Part shown: in pieces, positions 48,541 to 52,399 of the stretch
Position numbering within the stretch: the first letter of the stretch is position 1
Layout of the letters: the number at the start of each line of letters is the position of its first letter
IMG/VR virus record: IMGVR_UViG_3300042197_001007
From: a virus
Reading direction: 5' to 3' (one strand)
Length of the DNA: 64,000 nucleotides
Notes under the pieces: model-generated
What the model saw: the letters and a program-made list of their open reading frames with translations, nothing else
Databases searched by the model: none
What the model was told of the DNA's origin: nothing
Translations under genes and position numbers: made by a program

Positions 48541-51501
48541 TTATCTCCTGGCAGCCTTCCAATTAAACAAAGTATTAGAAGCAGTTGCTCCAGGAGACAG
48601 AGAATTGCTCATTGGAGATGCTTGTTGACCACCAGGACCACCATAAATGTTATTAATGATGTTGCCAGTTGGGGTATTCATTCCCATTGCCATCATTGAT
48701 ACTTGACCAGATGCTTGTGCTAAACTTGCTCCAGTATTTTGATTTGCTGGTGCCGCTTTTAATTTAGCAGCATTTTCTCTCATAATAGCAGATTTATCTT
48801 TAGGTGGCGCAGATGCTGTTGGAGTTGGAGTTCCAACTGGTTTTCTTCCTTTTGCTGCCAAACCACCAGGCATTCTATAAATCTTGCCCTTTCCACCATA
48901 ATAAGAATTATAAGCAGCAATAGTATCAACCCAACTAAACTGTGCTCCACTTGAAGAATTGGAAATCACTTTTCCATCTGGTGTTATAACTCCAATATGT
49001 TTCTGACCAGGAGCAACATAAAGATCTCCAGCTTGTGGAGAAGATACTTGAGAATATCCAGCCTTTATCATCATTTCTTCTGCTGTAGGAACATATTCAG
49101 ATGTTCCCCATGGAGTAGGAATACCAGCTTTAGCAAATACTTTATTTACCGCCCACACACAAGCATTCCTGCCTCCACTGGGACCAGATCTGCTAGACAT
49201 TCCTTTCATAGAAGCAGCTGCTTGTGCTAAAGCAGCAGCACCACCAGATCCTCCCGATACTGGAAATTCTGGAGCGGCAGAAACTGCGTTTAAGGAAGCA
49301 GCTTTAGTTCCTTGTGCTGCTCCAAAGAAATAATTTCCGCCCTGAGATCTTCTTCTTGATCCCGCTGTTTGATATCCCCTGAATGACATTGCTCCACCAA
49401 CAAATTGAGCAGACGATTTTGACATTGCTCCGCTTGTTTCAAAATCAGCAAGAACTTTAGATGCTTCTGATCCACTACCAGCACCAAATAATTTTTGAAG
49501 TTCTGCTAATCCATTTGGTTTTCCAGCAATTTCTAAAAGTTTTGCTTTTCTTTCAGCAGCATTTTTTCCTAATTTTTCTCGGATTTTTCCATATTTGGCA
49601 TCTGCGGCGTCATCTCCTGTTTTTCTGTCGTAGATGGCAGCAGCAAATGGACTAAATTGACCTTGTGCTGTGATTTGATCAAATAAAGTAGTTCCATATG
49701 CCTTCATGGAACCACCAGATTTTGCGTTAGCAGTTCTATTCAACATTACTTGGAAAGTGTCAGCAGCAGTTTGACCACCTCCACCTTCTAAAGTAGATAA
49801 AAATGCTGCGGCATTTCTCTCAGCAGTACTGCCTCCAATGCCACCATCCAAATAATCTGCTGGGTTACCATTAGGAGCAGCTTGAGCAGATCCTCCCATC
49901 AAAGAAGTTAAAGTTCCTCCAAAAAGAGCACCAAGAACACCAGTGACTTTACTAAAAACCTTAATCAAACTTTTTCCTAACTGATCTCCACCACCTTCAT
50001 TTTCATAATACTGTTTTAGTCCTTGGGATTGAATTCTAGCAAAATCTCTACTATTTGCTTTTTGAGCATCAATCATTCCTTCACCAAACAATTTAAACAT
50101 TTGTTTGGATTTTGCTTTATCTCCACCAACTAAACCACCTTCAGCGTATCCTTTGCCTCCAGTTGGTTTGTTGGCTCCACCTCCCATTGCGTTCATTGCC
50201 AATAATGTTCCTCTACCCCAGGCATTACCAGCAGAGTTGCTCATCACAACTTCTCCTTCATCGGCACGAATGGGAACATCATCAACAACACTCTTCTTAC
50301 CACCAGTAACAAGACCACCTCTAGCCATTCCAGAAGCAGCATCCTTTGCCATCAGAGCAGCATCAATACCAAGAGACGCTGCTGTTCCAAAACCAGGAAC
50401 CGTGCTTGCTGCCCCTGATGCCAATTCCATTCCGGCACCCGCCCAGTCGCCTCTCATTGCTCTACCAGCAGCAAATAGTCCACCAAGACCCAATCCAAGC
50501 AATGGAATTTTTTTACCAGCAATACCGAGTGCCTTTAGACCCAATTTGCCAGCAACCTTAGATCCCATCTTGGCACCTTGTTTTCCAGCAACCTTTGCTC
50601 CATAGCGAGTTGCCATTCTACCAATACCACGTTTTGCTATAGCATTCGCTGCTACCTTACCACCAAGTCCAAGACCAGGACCACCACCAGCACCTCCGCC
50701 CATTCCTCCTTGAGCAGCATTTCCTCCCAATTGAATACCACCAGATGGAGTAATAAATCCAGAATTATCTGCTGCCCCCTCTAATGCCTTTTCTTCTTCT
50801 CTAGCTAATGCTCTATTTGCTAAAGTATCTGCTTTTGCTGCTTCCTTATCAGAAATTTGTTTCTGTGCTGCTGTTTGTGCTTTTACAGCATCAACAAGAG
50901 ATGTTACTACTTTAGTAAGATTTTCTACCGATCCTACAACTGCTTCATCACCTTTAGTTATCAAAGAAGCACTTGAAATGCCAGAAGCTCCAGCAGATGC
51001 TACACTCGCAGTAGCATTCATCTGTGATTTTGATTTTTTCAGATAATCTTTTCTTTCTTCCGAACTTAAATATCTGCCAGTTTCTGGATCTACACCAGTT
51101 TGTGCTGCTTTGAAAAATACTTCACTATCTAATTTTTTGGGAGCAGCAGAAATACCAGGAATATTTGTAAATGTTCCACCTTTTGATGGAGCAGCAGGAG
51201 GTAACGCAGGTCTTCCTTGAGCAACAATATTACTTGAACCAGCACCAATCATTTTGGCAACTGGAGAACCTTTAAGCATAGTTGCTGCTTTTGGTTCTTG
51301 TTTTTGCCCTACTTCAGTAACTCTTACTGCTTTTACTGATGGATCATAGATATCTGGTTTTGGAGTTGTTGCTAATGCGCCACCTTTTTCTTTTTCTTCT
51401 TTCTCTTCTTTCTCTTTGTTTAATTTTTTCCACAACCATTCAACGTTTTTCCAGAAGTTATCTCCTGATACTGGTGTAGGTGTAAGAAAACCGTGTGCCA
51501 T
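48541..51501 (-). CDS. tape-measure-like / baseplate hub protein with SleB-like hydrolase and Cys/His peptidase domains
   Basis: Ala/Gly-rich helical body; VMLNR...QI.A.GQFSP; NACVWAVNKV...GDL...HIGV...VISNSSS. Confidence 0.65.
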   Translation of the reverse strand: MAHGFLTPTPVSGDNFWKNVEWLWKKLNKEKEEKEEKEKGGALATTPKPDIYDPSVKAVRVTEVGQKQEPKAATMLKGSPVAKMIGAGSSNIVAQGRPALPPAAPSKGGTFTNIPGISAAPKKLDSEVFFKAAQTGVDPETGRYLSSEERKDYLKKSKSQMNATASVASAGASGISSASLITKGDEAVVGSVENLTKVVTSLVDAVKAQTAAQKQISDKEAAKADTLANRALAREEEKALEGAADNSGFITPSGGIQLGGNAAQGGMGGGAGGGPGLGLGGKVAANAIAKRGIGRMATRYGAKVAGKQGAKMGSKVAGKLGLKALGIAGKKIPLLGLGLGGLFAAGRAMRGDWAGAGMELASGAASTVPGFGTAASLGIDAALMAKDAASGMARGGLVTGGKKSVVDDVPIRADEGEVVMSNSAGNAWGRGTLLAMNAMGGGANKPTGGKGYAEGGLVGGDKAKSKQMFKLFGEGMIDAQKANSRDFARIQSQGLKQYYENEGGGDQLGKSLIKVFSKVTGVLGALFGGTLTSLMGGSAQAAPNGNPADYLDGGIGGSTAERNAAAFLSTLEGGGGQTAADTFQVMLNRTANAKSGGSMKAYGTTLFDQITAQGQFSPFAAAIYDRKTGDDAADAKYGKIREKLGKNAAERKAKLLEIAGKPNGLAELQKLFGAGSGSEASKVLADFETSGAMSKSSAQFVGGAMSFRGYQTAGSRRRSQGGNYFFGAAQGTKAASLNAVSAAPEFPVSGGSGGAAALAQAAASMKGMSSRSGPSGGRNACVWAVNKVFAKAGIPTPWGTSEYVPTAEEMMIKAGYSQVSSPQAGDLYVAPGQKHIGVITPDGKVISNSSSGAQFSWVDTIAAYNSYYGGKGKIYRMPGGLAAKGRKPVGTPTPTASAPPKDKSAIMRENAAKLKAAPANQNTGASLAQASGQVSMMAMGMNTPTGNIINNIYGGPGGQQASPMSNSLSPGATASNTLFNWKAARR

Positions 51502-51698
51502 TAGCGTTGTGCTGCTCGTTCTTGTTCTTGTTTAACTTGATCCAGATACTGCATCAGGAGAGTAGTATAAACCTGCCTCTCCCAAGGCATCATATTTTCA
51601 ATGTCAGTCAAGCTATATTTATGGTGCTGCATCAAGGCAAAGTTAGTTTTATAGTACCCTTCCAAACTATTATGGAAGAGTGCTATCCGAAAAAATTT
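51501..51698 (-). CDS. gp51: gp51-like baseplate hub assembly catalyst, probably made by -1 frameshift from gp26
   Basis: YKTNFALMQHHKYSLTDIENMMPWERQVY motif; frame open back to the slippery site at 51692-51698; no good RBS before ATG 51632. Confidence 0.75.
   Translation of the reverse strand, partial: KFFRIALFHNSLEGYYKTNFALMQHHKYSLTDIENMMPWERQVYTTLLMQYLDQVKQEQERAAQR
51651..51698 (-). other. putative -1 programmed ribosomal frameshift signal
   Basis: A-AAT-TTT heptamer, 5-nt spacer, then a 14-bp stem with one mismatch. Confidence 0.75.
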
Positions 51699-52399
51699 GT
51701 TAATCCTACAATTGTGTATTCTGATGTTACACCTGTTTTTGGATTTTTCAGTGAGAATGTATGCTCAAGTCTTGGTGTTTCATCAAAAAATTGTTTAACC
51801 TGTTCAAATTCTTTGTTTGTCAGACCTTCAATCCATTCAATAAATTCTTTCTTGCTGGTAGTTGAGCTATCATAGACTTCTTCGTTATCAAATATCTGAT
51901 CAACACAGGATGCCATTGCTTCAATCACACTGTCTGCTGTTGGTGAAGCACCAAGAATTGAATTTCTGACAAAATCATCAAATGCTGGATATTTCATAAT
52001 CATACCAGTTGTGTCAGAAAGCATAATTTTATTACTATGACCTTCTGGTTTTGTGACAGTAACTTTTGTGAGATCTAAGACATATTTTACAACAGTCTCT
52101 TCATCATCTCTACAAGTGATATTCATCTCAACTGTCTCTCCAACGGAAACAGCACGAATTTGGAGAAAAATGTATTCTAAGTCAAAAGATGGCAATTCTT
52201 CAATTTTGATGCCTTTTGTAAGAATACAATTTTTAAGTAATGTCTTAAGTGCGTCTTCTACCGCTTTTTCATCATTTGTTTCCAGTGCCAACAAAAGTAG
52301 TTTTTCTTCTTTTACTACAAATGGGCGATATTTGATTTTTTTACCAGATGATGGAATTTCTAGCTCGTAAGTTGGAAGAGCGTGTTGTGGTAATGCCAT
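51683..52399 (-). CDS. gp26: baseplate hub assembly chaperone gp26
   Basis: LP.YELEIPSSGKKIKYRPFVVKEEKLLL...LPSFDLEYIFLQIRAVSVGE. Confidence 0.9.
   Translation of the reverse strand: MALPQHALPTYELEIPSSGKKIKYRPFVVKEEKLLLLALETNDEKAVEDALKTLLKNCILTKGIKIEELPSFDLEYIFLQIRAVSVGETVEMNITCRDDEETVVKYVLDLTKVTVTKPEGHSNKIMLSDTTGMIMKYPAFDDFVRNSILGASPTADSVIEAMASCVDQIFDNEEVYDSSTTSKKEFIEWIEGLTNKEFEQVKQFFDETPRLEHTFSLKNPKTGVTSEYTIVGLTNFFG

Follow-up and report, generated by a model that had tools for sequence, protein, structure and literature searches.

How is a conserved reading frame expressed when it lies in the -1 frame relative to the gene before it and lacks a separate start? This question is raised by the junction of two overlapping open reading frames (ORFs) in virus record IMGVR_UViG_3300042197_001007, of which a stretch of 64,000 nt (the window) was analysed; all features of the locus lie on its minus strand. 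The first ORF encodes a homologue of bacteriophage T4 gp26, and the second, referred to here as the extension, corresponds to part of T4 gp51. An earlier note on this DNA had proposed that the two are fused by a programmed -1 frameshift like that of the lambda tail assembly chaperones gpG and gpGT. Our analysis upholds that proposal: it is very probable that both gp26 and a gp26-51 fusion are made here through G/GT-type, programmed -1 frameshifting by the ribosome. The reading is supported by an invariant slippery heptamer, by an extension that is constantly in the -1 frame, by the in-frame parallel of T4 gp51 and by the predicted chaperone fold of gp26.

Xu, Hendrix and Duda are said to have described, in 2004, a conserved -1 frameshift in tail assembly chaperone genes. 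Well-known examples of such frameshifts are gpG/gpGT of phage lambda and gpE/gpE+E' of phage P2 (reviewed in PMC5009743), and a 2016 review described the G-T frameshift as conserved in long-tailed phages "except T4" (Atkins et al., PMC5009743). Leiman et al. (2010, PMC3004832) list both gp26 and gp51 of T4 as "hub assembly chaperone" and describe gp51 as an essential protein without known function; gp51 is required for assembly yet is not found in the particle (PMC3004832). As the earlier note remarked, a frameshift in T4-like gp26/gp51 genes is not known to have been described; likewise, no report of one was found in the literature that we searched, mostly without subscription journals.

On the minus strand, the 3' end of gp26 reads ACA AAT TTT TTC GGA TAG, exactly as and where the earlier note had placed it. 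The translation of the -1 frame starts RIALFHNSLEGYYKTNFALMQHHKY... and the frame remains open for 62 codons, up to a TAA (51503-51501) that overlaps the ATG (51501) of the next gene as TAATG. A slip at this site gives a product of 237 + 62 = 299 aa, for which the predicted tryptic peptide spanning the gp26-51 junction is ...TGVTSEYTIVGLTNFFR; the equivalence of the -1 frame and the gp51 frame, the length of the fusion and the TAATG overlap had all been read correctly from the sequence. The gp26 ORF matches PF12322 (T4_baseplate) over residues 9 to 237 with an E value of 2.6e-68 and phrog_150 with an E value of 1.4e-74, and it is the single copy of PF12322 inside the window. The extension belongs to phrog_634, "baseplate hub assembly catalyst" (gp51), and its first 49 residues also match the end of the phrog_150 profile (positions 230 to 277). 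The window is approximately 74% identical to Synechococcus phage S-RSM4 (Kyanoviridae). The coordinates of all features are given in the table below.

To place this junction among its relatives, we used a sample of 333 loci comprising IMG/VR records, GenBank phages and the window, with both domains found by iterated profile searches. The extension is present in 322 of these loci, which represent 38 gp26 clusters below 62% identity; another 10 lack it, being either truncated or only very distantly related. In all 322 loci, the extension is in the -1 frame relative to gp26 and a frame 0 T_TTT_TTN lies inside the frame overlap, which is just 7 nt long in 15 of them. The entropy of the run of six T residues is zero among 207 unique sequences in the same register, compared with 1.5 to 1.8 bits at the adjoining wobble positions. 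The phasing is always xxT TTT TTN, and the codon that precedes the heptamer always ends in T (AAT, AGT, TCT, GCT or GAT). The gp26 stop codon follows 0 to 2 codons past the heptamer in 310 of the 322 loci. The same heptamer recurs in KVP40-like vibriophages, Sinorhizobium phage phiM12, Rhizobium phage N34, Methylophilales phage Melnitz, Aeromonas phage AsFcp_4 and Stenotrophomonas phage Bhz51. Among A-site motifs that promote -1 shifting in Escherichia coli, U_UU.Y ranks second (PMC4066793).

In the window, the conserved heptamer takes the form T_TTT_TTC (U_UUU_UUC). The earlier note had assigned the slip to the overlapping A_AAT_TTT, which does fit the slippery pattern; however, it is present in only 37 of the 322 loci, its place being taken in relatives by C AAT, T AAT, G TCT or A AGT, and for this reason it was rejected as the functional site. 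Slips at T_TTT_TTC and at A_AAT_TTT yield an identical 299-aa protein. Salmonella phage Vi01 (L090, 2225-2450) carries no heptamer, just a U_UUC tetramer (ATT TTC ATT TAA); an unannotated gp51-like -1 ORF (...SESMPWHLDLL...) is present in the 500-nt gap past its gp26.

The extension appears to be translated from its very beginning, at least to judge from its conservation. It aligns without gaps from residue 1 across 39 diverse sequences, with a mean column identity of 54%. In 144 of the 251 unique junctions, the -1 frame contains no ATG ahead of codon 18, and the residues ahead of that methionine are conserved (RIAL.H.SLE.YYKTNFAL). Between the gp26 stop codon and this conserved methionine, the entropies at the three codon positions of the -1 frame are 0.90, 0.64 and 1.42 bits; because the third position has the highest entropy, this segment is likely to be coding in the -1 frame. 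The earliest canonical start in the extension frame of the window is a TTG at 51665 (codon 8), which lies within the 3' arm of the hairpin described below and is TTA, CTA or CTG in relatives; the earliest ATG is at 51632 (codon 19). In the GenBank records of S-RSM4, ACG-2014e, Sf-CH1b, Melnitz, phi-pp2 and AsFcp_4, gp51 is either unannotated or begun at an internal methionine, and a start at that point, approximately 19 codons past the heptamer, would cut off the conserved residues.

Comparison with T4 provides an in-frame parallel to the proposed fusion. T4 gp26 (208 aa) consists of PF12322 alone, the family to which the window gp26 also belongs, whereas T4 gp51 (249 aa) consists of PF12322 (residues 1 to 201) and a C-terminal part that matches phrog_634 (E value of 1.2e-23). 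The extension aligned with residues 207 to 244 of T4 gp51 in hhalign (E value of 1.6e-4), and the body of T4 gp51 matched the cyanophage gp26 profile (E value of 1.9e-6). Since T4 gp51 carries the same extension, both systems would have a short and a long form. The T4 genes 26 and 51 are separate paralogues that are divergently transcribed and use no frameshift, whereas the cyanophage has one gene; there is one PF12322 gene each in the genomes of S-RSM4, S-PM2 and phi-pp2 and two in that of T4. It follows from this comparison of domains and copy number that the pair of products which T4 encodes separately would come from a single gene in these phages. We propose that, unlike in T4, the single gene of the cyanophage would set the ratio of the short form to the long form by means of slippage.

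Natural fusions of the two parts also exist in the protein database, as in-frame proteins of 294 to 300 aa that carry PF12322 and PF28602 and have the predicted junction (for example, SFFRISMAH). One in-frame gp26-51 fusion, P0008 (299 aa, ENA, on a contig of 191 kb), has the junction GQAFRVALAH and no T run; an IMG/VR relative that is 95% identical to it, L093, has the usual GCT TTT TTC GCG TAG. P0008 may have fused naturally, or the fusion may have arisen during sequence assembly.

AlphaFold2 models of the window gp26 (predicted local distance difference test [pLDDT] score of 90.2) and of a natural fusion (pLDDT of 92.3) were compared with 48,161 PDB chains. For residues 1 to 95 of the window gp26, the top three chains were 3fgx (Z of 7.8), an uncharacterised protein from Bacillus stearothermophilus; 2ob9 (Z of 7.6), the HK97 tail assembly chaperone, with a root mean square deviation of 3.8 over 85 aligned residues; and 3klu (Z of 7.4), Bacillus subtilis YqbN. 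The next unrelated chain had a Z of 4.5, and the model of the natural fusion, which is second and independent, had the same top three chains. Although scores of Z < 8 do not amount to proof, the matches are specific, and the models support a tail-assembly-chaperone fold for residues 1 to 95 of gp26. The extension was modelled as helices packed after the second domain; a Foldseek search of the PDB with a 300-aa fusion model returned nothing at an E value of <= 0.001. In BFVD, the model of the window gp26 matched proteins of phiRSL1, PaBG, Bacillus phage SP-15, Campylobacter phage CP220 and Ackermannviridae. With the predicted gp26 fold present in jumbo and other distant phages, the chaperone family would therefore be far wider than the T4-like phages.

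Two elements that flank the heptamer may stimulate slippage in the clade to which the window belongs. The hairpin that the earlier note had drawn immediately downstream was recovered by folding. In its lower stem, AUAG pairs with CUAU, and a C.A mismatch comes next; in the upper stem of 9 bp, ACUCUUCCA (51681-51673) pairs with UGGAAGGGU (51664-51656) across an 8-nt loop, so that there are 13 pairs in total, including one U.G. The upper stem begins 7 nt past T_TTT_TTC, which is a typical spacing. Its z score (see the table) was obtained against 200 dinucleotide-preserving shuffles, none of which folded as well, and none of 500 synonymous recodings folded as well in the window; the same was true of S-RSM4. 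A hairpin shared by the whole family was rejected, since RNAalifold gave no consensus and the window's pairs were found in 67% of cells, compared with 35 to 49% for slid controls; the median z score is just -1.4. The folding statistics lead us to conclude that the hairpin is under selection in the window's clade, not across the family. In Rfam, at an E value of <= 1, there was no frameshift element, only one chance fragment of CrcZ. Phage S-PM2 (L003, 2224-2260) has a different, perfect 14-bp hairpin 9 nt past the same heptamer, which is matched by 1% of recodings; this suggests independent selection for structure at the place downstream of the heptamer.

Upstream of the heptamer, a Shine-Dalgarno (SD)-like run (GAGG, GGAGG or AGGA) is found at a distance of 4 to 20 nt in 201 of the 251 unique junctions, the window having a weak one. 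The conserved glutamate at this run is encoded by GAG in 116 of 160 sequences (72%), compared with 30% elsewhere in these genes, and the glycine is encoded by GGR in 73%, compared with a background of 34%; the sequences on which both comparisons draw are not independent. The purine run may be a stimulator like that of dnaX.

Table. Features of the gp26-51 locus and its neighbours in the window, in the order of transcription
Feature	Position	Strand	Evidence or remark
gp54-like tail tube / tube-initiator protein, 240 aa	52492..53214	-	PF23849 Phage_TTP_2, E 3.1e-78; phrog_45
gp26 ORF, frame 0, 238 aa + TAG; proposed short, G-like product (hub assembly chaperone)	51683..52399	-	PF12322, phrog_150
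AGGA, weak SD-like purine run; possible upstream stimulator (inferred)	51704..51707	-	8 nt upstream of heptamer
A_AAT_TTT, heptamer of the earlier note	51692..51698	-	fits pattern; present in 37/322 loci
T_TTT_TTC (U_UUU_UUC), slippery heptamer, frame 0; proposed -1 shift site	51689..51695	-	conserved; fits X_XXY_YYZ
-1 frame extension, 62 codons + TAA; T-like part of the predicted 299-aa fusion	51501..51689	-	phrog_634, E 6e-28
Hairpin, likely lineage-specific stimulator	51651..51686	-	minimum free energy -16.2 kcal/mol, z -5.33
gp26 stop codon, TAG	51683..51685	-	one codon past heptamer
986-aa downstream gene; putative tape measure with lytic domain, by position only	48541..51501	-	PHROG endolysin and peptidase matches

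In the mechanism that we propose, most ribosomes would read gp26 to its TAG and release a hub assembly chaperone of 238 aa, which corresponds to gpG in lambda and to gp26 in T4. The remaining ribosomes, a minority, would slip back by one base, with two tRNA-Phe molecules on the UUU-UUC of U_UUU_UUC; these ribosomes would then read CGG AUA GCA... for a further 62 codons and produce the 299-aa fusion, which corresponds to gpGT in lambda and to gp51 in T4. In this clade, slippage may be raised by the stop codon that lies one codon downstream, by the 9-bp hairpin that lies 7 nt past the heptamer and possibly by the SD-like run 8 nt upstream.

Several observations weigh against a programmed frameshift. 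An ATG is located 2 to 4 codons past the heptamer in 70 of the 251 unique junctions (approximately 28%), often as TAATG or TGATG, and the lineages concerned include S-PM2 and the KVP40-like, Rhizobium and Stenotrophomonas phages; in these lineages, a separate, translationally coupled gp51 of approximately 60 aa is therefore possible and a fusion may be needless. The pair of phenylalanine residues is itself conserved, which accounts for part of the conservation of the T run. The hairpin is missing from many lineages, lineages other than those of the window, S-RSM4 and S-PM2 have no excess of folding over synonymous recodings, the fold match has a Z below 8 and involves the N-terminal domain alone, and the in-frame fusions in the database are singletons that could be homopolymer sequencing errors. 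The early ATG codons, together with the TTG at codon 8 in the window and the GenBank records that annotate gp51 in this way, would suit an arrangement in which gp51 is made alone, as a protein of approximately 45 to 54 aa, by re-initiation or translational coupling at TTG 51665 or ATG 51632, with the T run merely encoding Phe-Phe. However, coding alone does not explain the invariant wobble T and the first TTT. Furthermore, the 18 residues ahead of the conserved methionine are kept and follow the codon pattern of the -1 frame, no ATG occurs there in 144 of the 251 junctions, the TTG is not kept in relatives and sits inside the hairpin stem of the window, and in T4 the extension exists only within a full gp26-like protein. 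We regard the separate synthesis of gp51 as unlikely.

The same 299-aa fusion could be made without any ribosomal slip if RNA polymerase stuttered on the six T residues and added one U to some transcripts, since a transcript with one extra nucleotide encodes exactly the same protein; T7 or T8 runs in some relatives would fit such stuttering. However, the run is just six T residues long in 229 of the 251 unique junctions, and in bacterial systems six T residues are below the usual length for transcriptional slippage. The constant xxT TTT TTN phase is what ribosomal re-pairing demands, and a hairpin that is selected beyond the needs of coding suits a ribosomal stimulator; polymerase stuttering is thus very unlikely. 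As for the idea that the -1 ORF is the decaying, unexpressed remnant of a gp51 that was once fused or once separate, nothing specific speaks for it, although several annotations omit the ORF. A dead ORF is hardly credible given that this one is open and conserved in all 322 loci, bears signatures of purifying selection and has the column identity given above in the alignment of 39 sequences.

A programmed frameshift at gp26 would resemble those of lambda and P2 in several respects. Two overlapping ORFs lie between a tube-type gene and a long gene in the tape-measure position; an X_XXY_YYZ heptamer is located near the end of the first ORF; and the second ORF occupies the -1 frame and, in the window's clade, lacks a separate start, there being no ATG before codon 19. 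The N-terminal domain of the window gp26, with its predicted HK97 chaperone (2OB9) fold, is likewise reminiscent of the G/GT chaperones. Unlike these, the shared part in the window is 238 aa, approximately twice as long, and comprises a chaperone-like domain and a second domain of approximately 140 aa; similarity in sequence to the G/GT families is absent, and the T4 literature places gp26 and gp51 at hub assembly, not at tube polymerisation. In contrast to G_GGA_AAG of lambda, the window heptamer is U_UUU_UUC, with a stop codon almost immediately after it. As in the signals of E. coli dnaX and the IS3 family, a downstream hairpin is located approximately 7 nt from the heptamer and an SD-like upstream run may contribute; unlike in dnaX and IS3, the heptamer is a different one and conservation of the stimulators does not extend over the whole gp26/51 family.

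The tube-type gene directly upstream of gp26 in the window and T4 gp54 have phrog_45 in common. Downstream, the 986-aa gene occupies the position at which the earlier note had placed a tape-measure-like gene; that position stands, but homology was not found, as the protein had no sequence match in Pfam, NCBIfam or the PDB and BLASTP against T4 gp29 gave nothing. Position is thus the sole basis for calling this gene a putative tape measure. Its product is rich in glycine and alanine, and the annotations of its relatives vary (endolysin, GPD and 2OG-Fe(II) oxygenase-like). In phiM12, a gene annotated as tape-measure-like sits two genes downstream. We infer that the shared domain of gp26 and the fusion would hold the tape measure and that a protein of the tube or hub would be recruited by the extension; a complex prediction for the extension and the gp54-like neighbour had a score of 0.00.

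Beyond the frameshift itself, we lean slightly towards a wider proposal, namely that gp26 and gp26-51 are true, if diverged, homologues of the G/GT proteins and that the frameshift is ancestral to the T4-like phages, a range that runs from Kyanoviridae and KVP40-like phages to Rhizobium phages and jumbo phages. In T4 and its near relatives, gene duplication would then have taken the place of the frameshift, giving genes 26 and 51, and the "catalytic" gp51, long a puzzle, would be the GT-type form, made in low abundance, by which the tape measure is coupled to the hub or the tube initiator.

If the slip is real, the annotation of hundreds of phage genomes in which gp51 is absent or begun at an internal methionine would be corrected. 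The exception made for T4 in the conservation of the G-T frameshift would vanish: most T4-related phages would use the slip, and T4 itself would be a derived case with two genes. A real slip would also give a concrete role to T4 gp26 and gp51, two proteins whose part in assembly of the hub has for decades been poorly understood (PMC3004832).

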